From contig NZ_CBDIPG010000002.1 in assembly GCF_965283645.1 (NCBI RefSeq), forward strand, positions 124,113 through 188,112: a DNA stretch of 64,000 bases. Direction: 5' to 3'. This DNA comes from Kordia sp. (GTDB lineage: Bacteria; Bacteroidota; Bacteroidia; Flavobacteriales; Flavobacteriaceae). Below the pieces are notes generated by a model. That model was given only the letters and a program-made list of their open reading frames with translations, was not told the origin of the DNA and searched no databases. The stretch's first letter is position 1, and each line of letters opens with the position of its first letter. A program made the position numbers and the translations under genes. This document shows, piece after piece, positions 5,890 through 14,412 of the stretch.

Positions 5890-5997
5890 ACTTTACCGAA
5901 AAAATAAATATACGAAAAGATTAATGTTGGCAAAACTAGCATTGATCTTTTTTTAGCTTAAAAAGGTAAAATACAGTACAAATTATAGTGGAATCCC

Positions 5998-6005
5998 TAT
6001 ATTTG
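5998..6005 (+). promoter_or_regulatory. -7 promoter box for smpB
   Basis: TATATTTG 9 bp upstream of ATG 6015. Confidence 0.65.
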
Positions 6006-6014
6006 CGCTCATTT

Positions 6015-6473
6015 ATGCAAAAAAATATCAACATACAAAACAAGAAGGCGCGCTTTCAATATGAAATCTTAGATAAGTATACGGCAGGAATTGTCTTAAC
6101 GGGAACTGAGATTAAATCTATTCGAATGAGCAAAGCTTCTATTGCCGAAAGTTTCTGCGAATTTAACGAGCAAGGAGAACTTTTTGTGGTGAATATGTAT
6201 ATTGAAGAATATGCTTTTGGCACGCATTACAATCACCAACCGCGAAGTACACGAAAGTTGTTGTTGAATAAAAAAGAATTGCGAAGCTTAGAAAAAAGTA
6301 TCAAAAACGCTGGATTAACCATTGTTCCGTTGCGTTTATTCTTAAATGAAAAAGGATTGGCAAAATTATCTATTGCGCTTGCAAAAGGTAAAAAGATTCA
6401 TGACAAACGTGAAACGATGAAAGATCGTGACAACAAACGTAACCTGGATCGTATTAAGAAAAATTTCCGTTAA
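6015..6473 (+). CDS. smpB: SsrA-binding protein
   Basis: [39 protein letters not shown]; start at ATG 6015. Confidence 0.97.
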
Positions 6474-6541
6474 GTTTCTACTAGTTATTTACTGTATAAA
6501 ATCACGTCATTACGAGAATTTGTTCGCTCTAATCACATAAT

Positions 6542-6569
6542 TGTCATTCCTGCGAAGATAGGATTCCAT
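6542..6569. repeat. Degenerate REP-like hairpin
   Basis: GTCATTCCTGCGAAGATAGGATTCC is an imperfect palindrome beginning with GTCA. Confidence 0.35.
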
Positions 6570-6617
6570 TTTACTAGTAATTCACGAATTACTTTGCTTG
6601 CATTACGGAAAACCGCA

Positions 6618-6648
6618 TTGTATATGTGTGCATTTTGTTTTACATTTA
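6618..6648 (+). promoter_or_regulatory. Candidate array promoter (Pc-like)
   Basis: TTG-N20-TACATTTA (one mismatch to TAnnTTTG), pointing into the cassette array. Confidence 0.4.
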
Positions 6649-6653
6649 GGGGA

Positions 6654-6742
6654 AATAACAGGAAGTTTCGATAAAAATACTTCCTGTTATTGACTAAATT
6701 TAGTATGAAAACGGGAATTCCTGTTATTCATACGTTAGCTGC
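6654..6742 (+). other. attI-like leader site of the cassette array
   Basis: TTCCTGTTATT at 6681 and 6718, inverted copy at 6654-6664, then GTTAGCT at 6734; no folded left arm, unlike the other sites. Confidence 0.5.
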
Positions 6743-6758
6743 AAGCTGAAAAAATCAA

Positions 6759-7046
6759 ATGGAACCTGAATTAAAAAAATACTTGCTCGAACAATGTCGA
6801 GATTGGATGCTTAAAGAAGAAATCAAAGTATTAAACAGATTAGGATTAACAGAACACGGAGAGACGGTTACACGAAAAAATGCTTTAGTTGAATATAAAA
6901 TGGAATTGTTTTATGGGTTTCAAGACAAAAAAGTAAATGATTTAGTTTCTTTAGAAAAAACTCTTGTGGAAGAAAGAATAGCAGAACGTATATTAAATGA
7001 TAACCCCGATATTCTGAATAATTGCTCAAATTGTGGAAAATTATGA
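6759..7046 (+). CDS. Cassette A hypothetical protein, ends in a lone CxxC
   Basis: 95 aa ORF 25 bp after the GTT site. Confidence 0.6.
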   Translation: MEPELKKYLLEQCRDWMLKEEIKVLNRLGLTEHGETVTRKNALVEYKMELFYGFQDKKVNDLVSLEKTLVEERIAERILNDNPDILNNCSNCGKL

Positions 7047-7447
7047 CTACAGAACCAAGAGGAAGATTATATCAAGATTCTGAATTTGAATTCAATGAGT
7101 TTAACGGATTAAAAATAGAAAAACTAATTGTCTGTGAAAATCCAGAGACTAAAGAGCCTATACTTATTTATATTAAAGTGGAAAATAGAAATTGGCATCA
7201 ATTCTTTTTGGACGCAGGAATAGGGTTTTGGGAAAACTGGGACGAAATTGACATTGAGGATGATTCTTATGATTTCATTGATTTTACTGACAAATTTGAT
7301 TTAAAAAACAAAGTTATTAATAGAATATTCTGTAAAAAAGATTTAAATAATAGCAGAATAATATTAGAACTGAAAAGCAACGAAAAGTTGATTTTAAAAT
7401 GCAAAGAGCCAAATATATTTGATTCTGATTGTGAATTAATAATGTAA
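7043..7447 (+). CDS. Cassette A second hypothetical protein
   Basis: ATG 7043 overlaps the upstream TGA (ATGA); acidic protein. Confidence 0.65.
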   Translation: MTTEPRGRLYQDSEFEFNEFNGLKIEKLIVCENPETKEPILIYIKVENRNWHQFFLDAGIGFWENWDEIDIEDDSYDFIDFTDKFDLKNKVINRIFCKKDLNNSRIILELKSNEKLILKCKEPNIFDSDCELIM

Positions 7448-7456
7448 AAAAGGCCA

Positions 7457-7655
7457 GCAGGTAACAAGGTATAAAAAACATAGGGCGCTTTAGGCTTATC
7501 CGAAAGATCTGTGTGTATTTGCAAAGTCACCGAATATAAAATTTGGCGTTTATGAGAAAAAAGATAAAAGCAAAATATTTATATTTGGCTTAGTACCAAC
7601 TCGAAACGTATCGCTTATTACCTGCCCTACGTTTCTTATACTAGCCGTTGTGCGT
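7457..7655 (+). repeat. attC-like site 1 (long class, about 200 bp)
   Basis: GGTAAC-AAG-GTATAA-N6-TAGGGC ... GCCCTA-N6-TTATAC-TAGCC-GTTGTGC. Confidence 0.8.
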
Positions 7656-7688
7656 CATTTAAGAACACTCGAATAAAAAAAGAAAATT

Positions 7689-7892
7689 ATGACAAATTAT
7701 ATTAACTGTGATAAACCTGAAAGTCCTTTCGGAAGAATTGAATGTAATAATTGCGGAGCGAAATATGATTTTGAATTTGACTCAATAAAAGCACCTTACA
7801 AAGAAACAGGAATTTTAAAATGTGCTTGTGGAGTTGACTTGGTAAGATGGAATAGTACGACTGAACCATATTTGGTAAGAGTTAATGAATAA
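7689..7892 (+). CDS. Cassette B small zinc-ribbon-like protein
   Basis: CNNC and CAC motifs; 67 aa; overlaps the next gene by 8 bp. Confidence 0.6.
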   Translation: MTNYINCDKPESPFGRIECNNCGAKYDFEFDSIKAPYKETGILKCACGVDLVRWNSTTEPYLVRVNE

Positions 7893-8277
7893 AACATACA
7901 AAATACATCTGAATGGAATTCTAATTGGGACTTCTGAATTAGAAAAAGCTGATGCACCAATGGGAGTTGCATTTGGACTGATTGTATTTAACCGAATTGA
8001 ATCGCCATACGAATTCTTTAAAGAATACTGTTTGAAAAACAATATTGTTATAAATACAGACGACCCAGAATTTGAATTTATCGACACTCAAGTGATATCT
8101 GGTTTAAAAGTATTTAGACAAGATGGACTGGAAATAAAAGGAGTTGCTGGAAATGCAATTACAGGAATGAAAAGAGATGGATATGAAATTTCAATTTTAG
8201 GAATCAATTATCCTTTTTACGAAGAAGAATTTCCACATCACGTAAAGGAATATGAAAATTTGTTCGGAAAAGAATAA
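7885..8277 (+). CDS. Cassette B hypothetical protein
   Basis: 130 aa ORF ending just before ACGCACAAC. Confidence 0.7.
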   Translation: MNKTYKIHLNGILIGTSELEKADAPMGVAFGLIVFNRIESPYEFFKEYCLKNNIVINTDDPEFEFIDTQVISGLKVFRQDGLEIKGVAGNAITGMKRDGYEISILGINYPFYEEEFPHHVKEYENLFGKE

Positions 8278-8283
8278 AAACGA

Positions 8284-8423
8284 ACGCACAACACCGTGTA
8301 TAATTAATTGCTTTGGTCGTTGCCTATTTGGAAAATTCCTTCGGAATTTTCTCGCGTTCGTTTTTGTTTACTAAATTAGTTGCTCAAACACGCAACTAAC
8401 CATACACATCAACGTTAGGCTTA
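8284..8423 (+). repeat. attC-like site 2 (medium class, about 140 bp)
   Basis: CACAAC-ACC-GTGTAT ... ATACAC-ATCAAC-GTTAGGC; internal hairpins GAAAATTCC/GGAATTTTC and TTAGTTGC/GCAACTAA. Confidence 0.85.
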
Positions 8424-8454
8424 ATTAGAAAAACCCGAGAGACCAATTCCATAA

Positions 8455-9024
8455 ATGAAAATATTCCTTAAAATTCTTGGACAAATAATAGCACTCGGAA
8501 TAGTAATCTTTTTAGGAATATTATTGACTTGGGAACAAATTCCTGGAAATAAAAATATTTGTGATGCTGGTCAAGGACTTTACGGATTAGCTTGGTTGAT
8601 TTTCATAATTATTTCAATCGCTTTGTTTATAAATTCTTGGATTTTTCTAAATAAAAATAATTGGAAAAAATACCGAATTACTGTTATGATAATCTGTGTA
8701 CTTATCGTTTTAATATCGTTAACTCTAAGGTCTGTGATTTTTCAAGTATCATATGGAAAAGAAAAACATAAAATTGAAAATACCGAAAATTACAATCAGT
8801 TAATTGAAGTAAAACTTTATGAAAATGGAAAATTCTATTCTTGGACTTATGATATGGGTTGTCAATTAGAAAATATCGGAACATATAAATTGAATGGAAA
8901 TAAAATAACATTGGAATTTGGAAATGAAAAATCTGAATATTTAGGAACAGAATATCTAATCGAAAATGATAAAGTTGTCTGTAATAAAGGTTGTGATTAC
9001 GAAAACGAATTGAAAATAGAATAA
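8455..9024 (+). CDS. Cassette C membrane protein (3 predicted TM plus soluble C-terminus)
   Basis: Three hydrophobic stretches in the N-terminal half. Confidence 0.75.
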   Translation: MKIFLKILGQIIALGIVIFLGILLTWEQIPGNKNICDAGQGLYGLAWLIFIIISIALFINSWIFLNKNNWKKYRITVMIICVLIVLISLTLRSVIFQVSYGKEKHKIENTENYNQLIEVKLYENGKFYSWTYDMGCQLENIGTYKLNGNKITLEFGNEKSEYLGTEYLIENDKVVCNKGCDYENELKIE

Positions 9025-9030
9025 AATAAC

Positions 9031-9170
9031 TAAGCCTAACACCGTGTATAATTAATTGCTTTGGTCGTTGCTTATTTGGAAAATTCCTTCGGAAGTTTCT
9101 TGCGTTCGTTTTTGTTTACTAAATTAGTTGCTTAAAGACGCAACTAACCATACACAATCACGTTAGGCAC
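9031..9170 (+). repeat. attC-like site 3 (medium class)
   Basis: Near-identical to site 2: GCCTAAC-ACC-GTGTAT ... ATACAC-AATCAC-GTTAGGC. Confidence 0.85.
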
Positions 9171-9206
9171 AAGCAAAAGAAACCAACATTAACCAACTAT
9201 ATTAGA

Positions 9207-9608
9207 ATGAGTTTAGTTCAAATTGACAAACAAAAACTAATCGATACAGGATTTACGGAATCTGGTGTAAAAAGGTATGAAAATACTATTACAGAATATT
9301 CCCAAATACTATTCGATAAGTCTAAAAAATTCGGAGAAGCGCGAAAGGCCAACGATTCTGCGGTAGAAATAAATTATGAAAATGTTCAAGGAGCTGTGAA
9401 GGTAATTTCTTCAACATTCGCAGATGAAAAAATACCGAAATGGAAATTATGGGCTCAATCTGGTGAATATCTGATAACCGCACTTTGTGGTTATTTAGGT
9501 TCTCAAGCGACACAAGATAATGCACCAAGTCACTTCACAATATTCTTTGTAATATCTGCAGTTGTCGGAGTAGGTTTGTTTATCGTTAGAAAAACTTCAA
9601 AAAACTAA
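9207..9608 (+). CDS. Cassette D protein 1: putative histone-fold domain plus 2 TM helices
   Basis: FTESGVKRY..EYSQILFDKSKKFGEARK..EINYENVQGA pattern; hydrophobic C-terminus. Confidence 0.6.
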   Translation: MSLVQIDKQKLIDTGFTESGVKRYENTITEYSQILFDKSKKFGEARKANDSAVEINYENVQGAVKVISSTFADEKIPKWKLWAQSGEYLITALCGYLGSQATQDNAPSHFTIFFVISAVVGVGLFIVRKTSKN

Positions 9609-9612
9609 AAAA

Positions 9613-10122
9613 ATGAAAAAGTCAATAAAATACACAGATTCGGCTTCAAAAAAACTTAATAGTGTTTTGGAGAAAGTCAAAGAACAAATTGCTGATGATA
9701 TCGTTAATTCTAAAAATTATCCTGGAGAAGAACTTATTGAAATAACAGCTTCAGATATTGAAGAAACTTATCGCAGATTAAGCATACGGAATAACAAGTC
9801 AACATTTTACAGAAAAAGTAAAATGATAAGAATGATAATTCCTGTTTATTTTATTTTGGGTATTATGCTAACACTTTTTGGCATTTTTAGAAAAGATATT
9901 ATGGAATTAATTAAAAATGACAAAGAGGGTCTTATGTATTCACTAACAGGTTTTGTGATATCTCTAACTTCTGCTGCTATATTTTATCTATACAAAAATA
10001 AAGAGAATGAAAGAAGACGTGAATATGAAAAAGAACGTAGAAATCTAAGTAAGTGGATATCTGAAATTGATTTAGAAAAATATGATACTGAATTTCTGAA
10101 AGATGAAAATGCCAGTGCCTAA
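9613..10122 (+). CDS. Cassette D protein 2: putative histone-fold domain plus 2 TM helices and charged tail
   Basis: YTDSASKKL..EITASDIEET pattern; stop codon lies inside GCCTAAC of site 4. Confidence 0.6.
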   Translation: MKKSIKYTDSASKKLNSVLEKVKEQIADDIVNSKNYPGEELIEITASDIEETYRRLSIRNNKSTFYRKSKMIRMIIPVYFILGIMLTLFGIFRKDIMELIKNDKEGLMYSLTGFVISLTSAAIFYLYKNKENERRREYEKERRNLSKWISEIDLEKYDTEFLKDENASA

Positions 10123-10318
10123 CATCGTATAAAAACAATAGGGCAATTGTAGCAAAACCGAATGGTTTGGGCGCATTTGCAAGGTCGCCAAATTTTTAAA
10201 TTTGGCTTATTGAGAAAGAAAAAATAATAAGAAAAATTTAAAAATTCAGCTTGTGGCTCAACCGAATAGATAGCGTGCAAATCTGCCCTACTGTTCTTAT
10301 ACACAACCGTTATATATA
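10115..10318 (+). repeat. attC-like site 4 (long class)
   Basis: GCCTAAC-ATC-GTATAA-N6-TAGGGC ... GCCCTA-N6-TTATAC-ACAACC-GTTATAT. Confidence 0.82.
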
Positions 10319-10703
10319 ATTCAAAAAAAGAATCGGAGACATCCGTTAGAAAAGAGATTTTGGAACGATTTTATGTAGTTTTTAAAATCAATAGGTTTTC
10401 ATTTAAGTTTTTGTCAGTTACACTGTGAAAGACAGTTCTTTCAAACATTGTTAATGTACTCAAAAACTTGATTTAAGGTAGTAGATTTATTTGACAAAAT
10501 CAACTCTTTATAAAAAACGATAAAATCTAACGTTGTAAATGCTAAAAAACAGCACACGCCTTATACAAATATAAAGCGCATCCTTTTTTTTATTTCAAAC
10601 GGATTTCAATGCTCATTTGGGCTCTTTTTTGAACTCCTGTTTTTTACTTGAATTTAAGTTGTATTTTAGTTCAATAAAGAACGCAAAAAAACATATATAT
10701 AAC
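10309..10703 (+). other. Cassette E: apparently non-coding cassette
   Basis: Bounded by GTTATATATA and TATATATAAC; no ORF of 60 aa or more in the track. Confidence 0.65.
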
Positions 10704-10751
10704 ATTGTGTAAACCTGCATTAAAACGCAGTTTACACTTAACGTTACCTGC
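10694..10751 (+). repeat. attC-like site 5 (short class, 58 bp)
   Basis: TATAAC-ATT-GTGTAAACCTGC-8 nt loop-GCAGTTTACAC-TTAAC-GTTACCT, with one unpaired C in the left arm. Confidence 0.8.
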
Positions 10752-10770
10752 AAGCTGAAAAAAATTGAGT

Positions 10771-11460
10771 ATGACAAAAAACATTACACTTCTGATTTTA
10801 ATATTTATTATTTCAAGTTGCTCTGCACAAGAAAATTTTAGAGATTATTATTATCAAATTGGAACAAAAAAGGAAATCAAAGTTTACAAATATGTTGACA
10901 AAAACAATCCAAGGAATATTGAATATTGGAAAGTTACTACAAACCCGAAAACAAATAAAATTCTAACCGAATCTTTCACAACTGATTTTAGACTTTACAA
11001 TATATTCGAGGAAGAGCTGAAAACAAATGGAGCGGAAATAATTCGTTATGCAGATTTTGAGGTTAATGACGAAAAACAGAATATACGGATTGACGGAACG
11101 ATTGTCGATAAAGATGTTTATAAATGGAATGACACAAACAAATATATTTATTCAGTCAAATACACGAGTCCAAAATATGGAAATGAACAATTCATAAAAG
11201 AACGAACTAAAAATAGCTTTGAAAAAATAACTATTAGCGGAACTGAATATTCAACATTAAAATTTAAGGATGAATACGAGATTAAATCACTCGAAAATGA
11301 CCAGAACTATGAATTTCATCAATTTACCTATTACGCAAAGGGAATTGGAATGGTAAAATACCAAAGGTATCATCCAGATGGAGCAACGATTGAATTAGAA
11401 TTAACCGAAATCCTAACTGAAAAAGAATTTGATGAACTGAAAGAAAAAGCCAGCAGGTAA
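10771..11460 (+). CDS. Cassette F lipoprotein
   Basis: Lipobox ISSC; stop codon inside GGTAAC of site 6; start at ATG 10771. Confidence 0.8.
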   Translation: MTKNITLLILIFIISSCSAQENFRDYYYQIGTKKEIKVYKYVDKNNPRNIEYWKVTTNPKTNKILTESFTTDFRLYNIFEEELKTNGAEIIRYADFEVNDEKQNIRIDGTIVDKDVYKWNDTNKYIYSVKYTSPKYGNEQFIKERTKNSFEKITISGTEYSTLKFKDEYEIKSLENDQNYEFHQFTYYAKGIGMVKYQRYHPDGATIELELTEILTEKEFDELKEKASR

Positions 11461-11589
11461 CACCGTATATAATTCATTGCTAGTTATAGCCAGTTTACGA
11501 AAGTCCTCGCGGACTTTATTTGTCCGTAATTTTTTATAAATTAGGTGCTTAAAACACGCAACAAACCATATACAACAACGTTGCCATTA
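11453..11589 (+). repeat. attC-like site 6 (medium class variant)
   Basis: GGTAAC-ACC-GTATAT-N6-TTGC ... GCAA-N6-ATATAC-AACAAC-GTTGCCA. Confidence 0.8.
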
Positions 11590-11599
11590 ATTAGAACCT

Positions 11600-12442
11600 A
11601 TGACCAGAAACATTCCGAAAAAGGTAAGAGAAGCTTTAAGAAAAGAAGTCAATTTTGGATGTCCAATTGATGGTTGTGGCAGTCCTTATTTGAGTTATCA
11701 TCATTTTGACCCACCTTGGCATATTGAAAATCATCATAGACCAGAGGGAATGATTGCATTATGCCTCGAACATCACAAGCAAGCCGATTATAATGCATTC
11801 ACAGATGACCAATTAAAAGAATTTAAAAAAAATCCGTTCCTATCTTCAGATGATTCAATACAAGGTCAAATAAATTGGAAAAGAGAGAATTTAGTTTTCT
11901 TAATTGGGGGAAATGTTTTCATTGGAGCTCAAAATATTTATCTCAATAAACAAGAACAATTGTTGTGGCTCACTACTGATGAACAAGGTAATTCACTTCT
12001 GAATTTAGATATGAAATCCGAAAAGGGAGAATTGATTTTTTCATTACGTGATAATGATTGGTTGGTTATGTCCAATTTTGATAATATTGAAAGTATTCCG
12101 AGCGGAAAAAAATTATTCTTCGAAAATAAAACAGAAGATTTAAAAATCGATATTGAATTTAATAACTATTCAAAAGTCGACTTTCAAAAGAAATATGCAG
12201 AAGATATTCCAGCGAGGTGGATAGAGATAATTACAAATAAAATTGTTGCTGAACCTATCACAGTCTGCGTAATCAATGGTCACTTAACTTATCCTTTTGA
12301 AATTAGAATGGAATCAACAGGCACTACAATAAACGGAGAAGGAAGCGAGATTACTGTAATGGGAAGTCTAACTCTAAAAAATGTCAAGGAACACATAATG
12401 CAAAGAGGATTAGTTGTCGGAAGTGGAGTACTGATAAAGTAA
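11600..12442 (+). CDS. Cassette G protein with N-terminal HNH-type nuclease domain
   Basis: RKEVNFGCPIDGC..YHHFDP..MIALCLEHH. Confidence 0.75.
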   Translation: MTRNIPKKVREALRKEVNFGCPIDGCGSPYLSYHHFDPPWHIENHHRPEGMIALCLEHHKQADYNAFTDDQLKEFKKNPFLSSDDSIQGQINWKRENLVFLIGGNVFIGAQNIYLNKQEQLLWLTTDEQGNSLLNLDMKSEKGELIFSLRDNDWLVMSNFDNIESIPSGKKLFFENKTEDLKIDIEFNNYSKVDFQKKYAEDIPARWIEIITNKIVAEPITVCVINGHLTYPFEIRMESTGTTINGEGSEITVMGSLTLKNVKEHIMQRGLVVGSGVLIK

Positions 12443-12443
12443 C

Positions 12444-12647
12444 TAATGGCAACAATGTATATAAAAAATAACGCAAGTCGTTGCTAAAACAAAGGCTTGG
12501 GCATTATTTGGAAGTCGCCAAATTTTTCAATTTGACAATTTCCTAAAAATAAAATAAATAGTAAAATTTAAAAATTCGGCTTGTGTATAATCTGAAAAGT
12601 ATCGCTTACAACTGCCCTACTTTTCTTATACGGAGACGTTGGCAGTA
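12444..12647 (+). repeat. attC-like site 7 (long class, mismatched left arm)
   Basis: GGCAAC-AAT-GTATAT ... GCCCTA-N6-TTATAC-GGAGAC-GTTGGCA; centre resembles site 4. Confidence 0.75.
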
Positions 12648-12655
12648 ATACCGAA

Positions 12656-13744
12656 ATGAACATAGAATTAGAAAACCTACAATCGACTATAAAAAGGAAG
12701 TACAGTTTTAAATATAAACCTGAATTTTCTGAATCTTTCAAGACAGATATAAAAGACAACCAAATAATCCCATTAACTATTGAAGTTTTTGAAAAATTAG
12801 AATGGCCAATTGTCTTTAGAGACAATAAGTCAGTTGAAGCTAAAAGGAAAGGCGACTGGAATAAACTGACCGAAAAAATAACAATTACCAAAAAGGCTTC
12901 TGGTCGAATTGAGGTTCATAGTAAAACAATTGAAGGTAATTTCATTGATTTCGGAAAAAACTCTAAAAGAACTGGTTTATTCATTATTCTTTTTCAAAAG
13001 TTAGCTAAAGAATACCAAGAAAGCGGAAAACTCTCTGAATTAGAAACGGAGTTTGAAAAAGAAAACAGTTGGGCAGATTATGAAATTCCTTCAGAATTAC
13101 CAAAACCAAAAGAATTTGGAAAACCAAATTTAGTTCTTTCAATAATTGGAGGTCTTATTATCGCAATTCTGTTTGGAATATTAATTGCGTTTTTAACTAC
13201 AAAATTTACCTATTTCATTGGAATCTATGAATTCGCAATTGGAATCGGTATTGGATACTTCTTTGGTCAAGTTTTAAAGAAAACTAATTACATTGAGTTT
13301 AGATCAATTCAATTTATCATTGGAGGAATCGTGATTGTAATGTTTATAACGAATCTATTCACACAATATCAATTAATAATCGCAGAGAATAACATTTCAG
13401 AACTTAGCTTTTTTGAATTTATGAAACTGCGTTTTGAAGGCGGGTTAACAATAAAGGATTTAAATACAGGTTGGATTGGACTTACTTTAAGTTGGGTTTT
13501 TCAAATGGTTTTCCCTTACTTTTTAGCTGTCGGTAAAGTTGCAGGAATTACAGCAAATTATATTATTGAAAAAATTCCTGAAAAAGTACTTGAATATACA
13601 ATTTATCTTTTCGAAATGGAAAAGTCAGAAAGTGAAGTTAGAGCTGAATTAGCACAAAAAGGATGGAATAAAAAGTCTGACCAAGATAATGTTTTTAAAG
13701 CTATTGTCGAGATAAGTGGATTTCATCAAATGAACAGAGAATAA
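12656..13744 (+). CDS. Cassette H membrane protein (soluble N-terminus, about 4 TM)
   Basis: 362 aa with Gly-rich hydrophobic helices in the C-terminal half. Confidence 0.78.
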   Translation: MNIELENLQSTIKRKYSFKYKPEFSESFKTDIKDNQIIPLTIEVFEKLEWPIVFRDNKSVEAKRKGDWNKLTEKITITKKASGRIEVHSKTIEGNFIDFGKNSKRTGLFIILFQKLAKEYQESGKLSELETEFEKENSWADYEIPSELPKPKEFGKPNLVLSIIGGLIIAILFGILIAFLTTKFTYFIGIYEFAIGIGIGYFFGQVLKKTNYIEFRSIQFIIGGIVIVMFITNLFTQYQLIIAENNISELSFFEFMKLRFEGGLTIKDLNTGWIGLTLSWVFQMVFPYFLAVGKVAGITANYIIEKIPEKVLEYTIYLFEMEKSESEVRAELAQKGWNKKSDQDNVFKAIVEISGFHQMNRE

Positions 13745-13750
13745 AAGTAC

Positions 13751-13880
13751 TACTTGGCAACACCGTAAATAATTAATTGCTATTTATAATATACTTATGA
13801 AAACCCTCGCAGATTCTCTATTCATTTTTATTCGCCAAATTATATTCTTAAACAAATAATACACAAAACCATTACCAATA
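13751..13880 (+). repeat. Eroded attC-like site 8 (medium class)
   Basis: GGCAAC-ACC-GTAAATAATTAATTGC left arm aligns to sites 2, 3 and 6; right end reads ATTACC instead of GTT. Confidence 0.55.
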
Positions 13881-13886
13881 ATTAAG

Positions 13887-14282
13887 ATGAAGAAAATAAT
13901 TTTCATATTAACTTTGATATGCATATCTACTATTGGATTCAGTCAAACAGATTCAATTAAAGGAAACCAATTTGAACTAACGGGAAAGATTATCAATGAA
14001 ATTTCTTTAACTCCTCATTGTGGAAATTTTGCTTTCGGAACGGTCGTTGAATTTGAAATTATCGAATTTTCTGACTCCAATTATAAAGGTAGTTCTATAG
14101 GTGTGATTTTTACTTGTCCTGAATTCTATAAAAGTGGATTTTTTGAGATTGGAAAGACTTATACAATTACCATTGCTGATGAAAATCAAGCAGACTTCAG
14201 TTGGATTATTCCTAATGAATATATATTGAATAAATACAAGTTGGACAAAAAACTGTGGGTCATTGAAGCGAATAAGAAATAA
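13887..14282 (+). CDS. Cassette I-like secreted hypothetical protein
   Basis: Signal peptide MKKIIFILTLICISTIGFSQ. Confidence 0.75.
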   Translation: MKKIIFILTLICISTIGFSQTDSIKGNQFELTGKIINEISLTPHCGNFAFGTVVEFEIIEFSDSNYKGSSIGVIFTCPEFYKSGFFEIGKTYTITIADENQADFSWIIPNEYILNKYKLDKKLWVIEANKK

Positions 14283-14412
14283 TAAAATATGAAATCATAG
14301 TTCACTACGGCTGTTATGTTATATATACTAAACGTTACAAATTCCAAATACACAAAACCAAGCACATTCAAGATTTCCCAAATGTGCTCAACTTAAAATA
14401 TAGTAGTGTTTT

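Follow-up and report, generated by a model that had tools for sequence, protein, structure and literature searches.

A candidate head for integron-like cassette arrays in Kordia: a promoter-like block joined to a putative docking site

Integrons are thought to need one attI site beside one integron integrase, IntI. In classical integrons the site attI1 is built of R, L, DR1, and DR2 boxes, and the promoter Pc reads the promoterless cassettes; the integrase, which has an IntI-specific extra domain, binds the repeated boxes, and attI recombines with attC. Clusters of attC sites that lack an integron integrase, called CALINs, were reportedly described by Cury et al. in 2016; to our knowledge they are defined by their attC sites only, and we know of no description of a conserved head for them. 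The Bacteroidota, as far as we know, are regarded as almost integron-free.

The closest published system is rAID-1 of the Bacteroidales (Ross et al. 2019), which we liken to the present locus by its architecture. In the accessible part of its description, rAID-1 consists of a 5' XerD-like recombinase gene and a co-directional array of short genes (10.1101/471110; PMC12247911); the intergenic repeats are called "reminiscent of integrons", and downstream of the recombinase stop codon, ahead of the first gene, there is a conserved motif (10.1101/471110). As worded in that part, the criterion for rAID-1 is a recombinase with 44% or more identity to BF9343_RS08045 and, behind it, a run of at least two co-directional genes of low GC; the cargo consists of T6SS immunity genes (10.1101/471110; PMC12247911). 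The mode by which the rAID-1 arrays of gut Bacteroidales acquire genes is still open (PMC12247911). A search of the literature on integrons in Kordia or Flavobacterium returned nothing relevant, and in the literature we found no description of recombinase-less, promoter-bearing, multi-copy heads.

Here we analyze a stretch of 64 kb from a Kordia genome (referred to as the window, at its full length), with a focus on a 134-bp module at 6603-6736, just 3' of smpB. This module is probably the head of an integron-like cassette array, composed of two joined modules. A broader reading is put forward more tentatively—that Kordia possesses a "distributed integron" of at least 12 promoter-equipped docking sites beside housekeeping genes, each gathering its own cassettes and served in trans by zero to two Xer-like recombinases without the integron-integrase domain, with the site read as a folded hairpin.

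The head element and the array behind it

The features of the locus are collected in Table 1. The original prediction described a triple 11-bp motif, and its coordinates are exact: the 11-mer TTCCTGTTATT is found on the forward strand at 6681-6691 and 6718-6728, its reverse complement AATAACAGGAA is found at 6654-6664, and the five bases CATAC (6729-6733) separate the last copy from the GTT at 6734-6736. The motif is not triple, however: the 134-bp module holds four half-sites that make up two inverted repeats, the fourth half-site being the imperfect AACGGGAA at 6710-6717, which adjoins the third copy. With up to one mismatch, TTCCTGTTATT has 12 matches in the 64-kb window against 3.16 expected, a count that 0 of 100 shuffles got to; only four copies in the 64 kb are exact, and three of these belong to the head. 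Across the whole 5.77-Mb genome, clusters of TTCCTGTTATT within 150 bp are limited to the window head and C1:193936/193963, on contig C1, which is the head of another array.

Table 1. Features of the array head and its surroundings, in window coordinates. The arrow in G↓TT marks the crossover.
Feature	Position	Strand	Description
smpB	5988..6473	+	PF01668 SmpB, E 2.3e-55; housekeeping gene, left border of insertion
5' module, portable promoter-like block	6603..6652	+	TTG 6618-6620, 20-nt spacer, TACATTTA 6641-6648; predicted start ~6653
IR-A	6654..6691	+	arms AATAACAGGAAGT 6654-6666 and ACTTCCTGTTATT 6679-6691, perfect over 13 bp, loop of 12 nt; includes the first two motif copies
Linker	6692..6702	+	start of conserved TTTAGTATGA block; last bases form the outer stem of palindrome B
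Palindrome B, putative docking-site core	6703..6733	+	left arm GTATGAAAACGGGAA 6703-6717, right arm TTCCTGTTATTCATAC 6718-6733 including motif copy 3; one bulged base
GTT, crossover G↓TT, left boundary of first cassette	6734..6736	+	conservation of the head ends here; own-end complementarity and shared-cassette homology begin here
First cassette	6735..7650	+	ORFs 6759-7046 and 7022-7447, no family match
Rest of array	7448..14340	+	about eight more cassettes, attC-like sites of three size classes

Palindrome B extends right to the edge of the GTT. Folded as single-stranded DNA, positions 6649-6740 form two hairpins (z = -7); the stem of the second runs from GTATGA to TCATAC, with one bulged base, and ends at the base before the GTT. 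The layout of the head is that of the short attC at 10697-10744 (R''-N3-stem-N5-GTT) minus the R'' arm. No AAC-N3-GTRTA left arm is found in the head, in agreement with the original prediction; AAC-N6-GTATA at 6612-6627 is kept in all heads and overlaps the -33 region, and its spacing is wrong for the attC sites of the array. In the gap between smpB and the head, 6507-6600 contains REP-like intergenic repeats (gtcattacgag..., attgtcattcctgcgaag...), and similar stretches are found at many places in genomes of the genus and in at least one other genus. The window contains no RNA family that reaches the Rfam gathering scores, and by ARAGORN there is neither tRNA nor tmRNA beside smpB; with both searches empty, a structured-RNA or tmRNA-linked island was dropped as a candidate.

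The upstream promoter-like sequence facing the array, TTG-N20-TACATTTA, is present as predicted. The Bacteroidota sigma-A promoter has TTG at -33 and TAnnTTTG at -7, and its transcript would start 5 nt past the -7 box. The flavobacterial -7 box TAnnTTTG sits at -12 to -5 (PMC9723704), and the box in the head matches it at seven of eight positions, the last base being A, not the usual G. By this placement the predicted start falls at about 6653, at the first base of IR-A. In 31 heads the TTG and TAC-TTTA are invariant, with constant spacing save for gaps of one or two bases in two sequences. A search for the 5' module alone gave 12 genomic copies at E<0.01, each with a co-directional ORF behind it—at 18-260 nt in eleven cases, and at 540 nt where the non-coding 395-bp cassette described below comes first. 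At 13 of 15 loci the first ORF begins 14-38 nt past the GTT; in the window the first ATG (6759) lies 22 nt past the GTT triplet, so there is no room for a promoter of its own. From its conservation and the orientation of the downstream ORFs, it is plausible that the 5' module is a promoter for the cassettes.

The 5' module is also found without the docking module, at about nine loci (C1:855828, 1890090, 2682948, 942843, 1201470, 1582207, 2483298, 2518803, and 5240922) and always upstream of a co-directional ORF. Some of these copies, for example C1:1582207, keep a degenerate IR-A fused straight to ATATA-GTT.

Downstream of the head, about nine units extend from 6734 to ~14340, and the sites that part them read xxxxAAC-N3-GTRTA ... 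TAYAC-N5/6-GTTxxxx. Each unit begins, just past its G↓TT, with the reverse complement of its own end (for example GTTGTGCGT at 7648 and ACGCACAAC at 8284); this mirror complementarity between the start and end of a unit is the mark of insertion as circles. The first cassette follows the rule with one mismatch, its start GTTAGCTGC being mirrored by the 3' end GCAGGTAAC. The attC-like sites were called by the array's own grammar, not by the model of IntegronFinder; about eight lie at 7448-13880 and no recombinase lies in the window. A CALIN is defined by at least two attC sites that have no integrase closer than about 4 kb, and the array belongs to that class.

Conservation of the head and cassette turnover at its GTT

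When the genus was searched with 6474-6760, matches were found in 17 of 18 other genomes, mostly at 12 or more places in each. Thirty-one distinct copies of the head align with a mean column identity of 82% over the part shared with 6603-6736, and the similarity starts sharply at TTACGG and stops sharply at GTT. The consensus opens with the 5' blocks TTACGGAAAACCACATTGT (which contains the TTG) and TTTGTTTTACATTTAT; these are followed by IR-A (AATAAnaGGAAGT / AGTTCCTGTTATT, with a 12-nt loop), TTTAGTATGA, a palindrome with the center GGAATTCC and arms AACAGG / CCTGTT or ATACCG / CGGTAT, TATACATAC, and GTT. Many heads have GTATAT-type arms in place of the third motif copy. Paired cells make up 85.7% (IR-A) and 81.2% of the alignment in the two helices. 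Two-sided changes fall mainly in the palindrome; the arms of IR-A are kept and show few such changes, so its pairing, whether in RNA or DNA, is unproven by covariation.

Upstream, the heads are bordered by genes with housekeeping roles (mltF-like, sulfate permease, acyl-CoA dehydrogenase, transketolase, smpB), and some of these neighbors recur between species. The invariant columns of the head persist across species at places where the neighboring intergenic DNA has diverged beyond alignment. The possibility that the head is itself a cassette was rejected, as its left end is preceded by A or T, not G, and by housekeeping genes. Just upstream of the array head at C1:193.9k, C1:193500-193680 contains a tandem unit of ~40 bp, GTTTCCAA.ACGTT.GAAAGCGTGTTGCA..TCTGCG.GAAC; a similar repeat precedes a distant recombinase homologue in another genome (G009, L051).

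Insertion of new cassettes had been predicted at 6734, and the evidence agrees—own-end complementarity, turnover at the smpB locus, and a shared 395-bp cassette all start at the GTT. The junction was examined in 18 regions from two complete relatives, with 16 full heads. In 11 of the 16, the 10 nt from the GTT recur as their reverse complement 0.4-2 kb downstream (eight exactly, three with one mismatch), each time just before an attC-type left arm, and the head at C1:193885 in the window's genome displays the same own-end complementarity from its GTT. This test was used in place of the strict pattern AAC-N3-GTRTA...TAYAC-N5/6-GTT, which yields few sites after the heads in G003 and G010 because other attC classes, such as AAC-N3-GGTAACCGTTGCAC, are used there. 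Genes of the first cassette at the heads include Mrr-like, AbiJ/Abi_C, DUF6119, YfbU, and AriA/Old-like ATPase genes.

The smpB locus can be followed through the genus. All 19 genomes have smpB, and in eight of them a head, whole or partial, comes after it; the sequence past the GTT varies between species, with one cassette common to two genomes. Eight of the 11 headless genomes have an empty site, in which smpB is followed directly by the next gene with neither head nor remnant, this gene being a homologue of the window at 14.4-18 kb or 18.2-18.9 kb; in the other three, the neighbor was not found in the 1.5-kb flank examined. A short head is found at the smpB locus of one genome (G004, L093:2141-2260), where the right arm of IR-A is joined straight to ATACTTAC-GTT. 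It looks like a deletion between two direct copies of TTCCTGTTAT, and its form is that of the recombinase-proximal site of the window's genome.

The 395-bp cassette (window 10311-10704) is found five times in the window's genome, with 88-96% identity between copies, and once in a relative. The left contexts of this cassette are an attC, a dispersed head, and a recombinase-proximal site, and the homology runs exactly from GTT to the next GTT. The 88-96% identity of cassettes shared between arrays gives no sign of very recent exchange. The GTT is the cassette junction, cassettes have turned over at the site, and its core is identical to that of the recombinase-proximal sites; the head thus possesses the classical attI feature of a G↓TT crossover bordering the first cassette.

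The 395-bp cassette has no sizeable ORF and is often the first after a head or a recombinase-proximal site (C1:1265960, C1:31077, and L065 of G003). A cassette so numerous and so often in first place may have its own function, for example as a promoter, small RNA, or site.

The recombinase and its sites in Kordia and other Bacteroidota

Searches with PF00589 and TIGR02249 gave zero matches in the 64-kb window or on its 204-kb contig; all matches are on contig C1. Here two near-identical intact genes, at C1:1264570 and C1:5512573, encode a 428-aa Xer-like recombinase, and each is followed by an array on the same strand. The protein contains PF13495 and PF00589, and its 150-residue N-terminal extension has no Pfam match at the thresholds used. 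Its best model is NF040815, where it scores 215.7 bits (the cut-off being 220); TIGR02249, the model for integron integrases, gives 183 bits against a cut-off of 265, with a match that spans model positions 7-170 and 240-314 only and skips the IntI-specific insertion region. The NCBI name of the Kordia orthologues is "site-specific tyrosine recombinase/integron integrase".

The docking core adjoins the recombinase at C1:5513.9k and C1:1265.9k. In the window's genome, ~70 nt past the recombinase stop codon, the order is GAAATAACAGGAAC, an 11-nt loop, GTTCCGTATATACATAC, GTT, and a cassette; in five orthologues the same place is occupied by a perfect palindrome (ATATACGGAATTCCGTATAT or its CCGAATTCGG variant), ACATAC, and GTT. 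The arrangement of GAAATA, palindrome, ACATAC, and GTT is located 60-90 nt 3' of the 428-aa recombinase stop codon in the window's genome and five other Kordia genomes. At a locus with a recombinase remnant (G015), the site is identical to the consensus of the dispersed heads. The window array and the recombinase-linked arrays on C1 have attC classes and one cassette in common. The motif check called for in the original prediction favors its reading, as the motif both heads other arrays and adjoins tyrosine recombinase genes; the reading of the head as an attI analogue is supported by the identity of its core with the recombinase-proximal sites and by conservation that stops at the GTT.

A stretch just upstream of the recombinase start codon also matches part of the head, namely the right arm of IR-A, the linker, and the left arm of the palindrome, so that the recombinase gene has a half palindrome on one side and a full one on the other. 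IR-A may be an accessory or autoregulatory site, since the IR-A right arm and the linker precede the recombinase gene as well. Direct repeats of ATAACAGGAA flank the recombinase gene at C1:5512495-5512573 and C1:1264520-1264570; the copies belong to the half palindrome before the start codon and the full site after the stop codon, and through them the gene could be lost or gained precisely. Two more docking cores, at C1:818702-818728 (reverse strand) and C1:3250419-3250445 (forward strand), are preceded by sequence like the last codons of the recombinase and its 3' flank, and are probably arrays with a deleted recombinase.

When 15 head loci, the window's first 20 kb, and C1:190-205 kb were searched by tblastn for the recombinase, there were zero matches; no recombinase pseudogene is thus hidden within 1.5 kb of the heads. 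Of the 19 genomes of the genus, six have an intact orthologue, and another five or six a pseudogene or remnant. The recombinase was not found in G003, G002, and others with at least 12 heads, and G015 has a remnant. Many heads may therefore be inactive now.

Beyond Kordia, 63 loci encoding relatives of the recombinase were examined. At many of these, an inverted repeat whose outer ends are of the TATA type comes after the stop codon, with 5-7 nt between it and a GTT, and its arms are specific to the lineage; the layout is found in Allomuricauda/Flagellimonas, Polaribacter, Lutibacter, Algibacter, Chitinophagaceae, and Cytophagales. In other Bacteroidota, the inverted repeats beside homologues of 39-53% identity are different ones, again followed by 5-7 nt and GTT. 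In two pairs of loci (L125/L129 and L126/L153) the repeat is identical within the pair, and the sequence past the GTT is different. A search of 200 other genera of the family gave a single genome with the Kordia core pattern, and this genome has a full-length orthologue at 54% identity with a similar site after it. In these comparisons site and recombinase lineage co-vary, which is indirect evidence of recombinase binding to the repeats and of recombination of the site with attC.

The loop of the inverted repeat ranges from 0 to 16 nt across lineages, and is 0 or 11 nt within Kordia. Such variation in loop length would rotate the half-sites of a duplex with respect to each other but spare a stem, and we infer that the site is read in its folded form. 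In place of the double-stranded site of the original prediction, this suggests that the docking site may be a folded stem, equivalent to an attC that lacks R''.

Proposed mechanism, competing readings, and relation to known systems

In the mechanism that we propose, the 3' module (~6703-6736) would act as the docking site, equivalent to attI, for the Xer-like tyrosine recombinase encoded on the other contig. Circular cassettes would recombine at G↓TT, and the newest cassette would therefore be the first in the array. The 5' module (6603-6652) would be a portable sigma-A-type promoter, with a start at about 6653, that reads through the site into promoterless cassettes. The half-sites TTCCTGTTAT would be recognized by the recombinase, probably as stems in folded DNA rather than as spaced duplex sites. 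Recombinase binding, the folded as opposed to the duplex form, promoter activity, and present action in trans are steps that we infer.

In the main rival reading, the repeats would serve as operators or 5' UTR hairpins that control expression from the head promoter, and insertion would need only the few bases around the GTT. IR-A does begin at the predicted +1 and covers +1 to +38 of the predicted transcript; the presence of its right arm and the linker before the recombinase start codon is what a shared operator would give, and both hairpins are stable in single strands, with the z of -7 given above. The palindrome, however, directly follows the recombinase genes even where the 5' promoter module is missing, its layout is that of an attC stem, spacer, and GTT, and phylum-wide an inverted repeat with lineage-specific arms is fixed at 5-7 nt from the GTT after homologous recombinases; we therefore consider a purely regulatory role unlikely. 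The idea that the head is a fossil, left by deletion of an adjacent recombinase, with a static array and with conservation due to recent common descent, is improbable too. It draws on the direct repeats ATAACAGGAA around the recombinase gene as a deletion route, on recombinase remnants with intact cores (C1:818.7k, C1:3250.4k, and G015), and on heads without the recombinase in some genomes, and it may apply to the genomes that lack the enzyme. Yet no copy of the 5' module lies next to a recombinase gene, so that the heads are not simple deletion products; orthologous heads carry different cassettes, invariant columns outlast alignable intergenic DNA, and two recombinase genes remain intact in the window's genome.

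A degenerate attC, or a chance cluster of repeats without a special role, is very improbable. AAC-N6-GTATA at 6612-6627 and the terminal CATAC-GTT loosely resemble attC arms, but the R'' boxes of attC sites differ per cassette whereas the 5' end of the head is constant in 31 copies, and the sequences upstream are housekeeping genes, not cassettes. The density of repeats is also far above chance.

Under the docking-site reading, the head provides a precise candidate docking site for the integron-like arrays of Bacteroidota, and such a site can be uncoupled from its recombinase, given its own promoter, and multiplied round the chromosome. A hairpin-type attI, if true, would change the accepted view of the DNA forms involved in cassette insertion; if the docking site is folded, both insertion partners would be structured single strands. 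In practical terms, the 134-bp head is a simple probe for hot spots of accessory and defense genes in Kordia genomes.

The head resembles a classical attI with its Pc in providing, as far as its sequence tells, a cassette entry point, a G↓TT crossover, repeated motifs upstream of the crossover, and an upstream promoter-like block. In contrast to a classical attI, there is no adjacent integrase gene at the window head; instead of a simple site of L and R boxes with direct repeats, the head has an inverted repeat with a variable loop that abuts the GTT, and it is multi-copy and dispersed, with at least 12 copies per genome in most relatives. The partner enzyme also differs from that of a classical integron—it is without the IntI-specific insertion and falls under the integron-integrase cut-off.

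Like rAID-1, the system belongs to the Bacteroidota, and the two recombinase-linked arrays on C1 share the rAID-1 architecture, whereas the window array does not. The motif after the recombinase stop codon (palindrome and GTT, in Kordia and many Bacteroidota) and the attC-like repeats between cassettes are likened to those of rAID-1 by position. rAID-1 is defined by its adjacent recombinase; the Kordia heads are recombinase-less and promoter-bearing, which the accessible part of the rAID-1 text does not describe. That part defines neither mechanism nor crossover point, whereas the Kordia crossover is placed at G↓TT. The cargo differs as well: it is mostly of unknown kind here, with some defense-like genes, as opposed to the T6SS immunity genes of rAID-1. 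As with a CALIN, a cassette array without a nearby integrase is found in a genome with integrase-linked arrays elsewhere; unlike a CALIN, each array starts with the same 134-bp promoter-plus-docking module.
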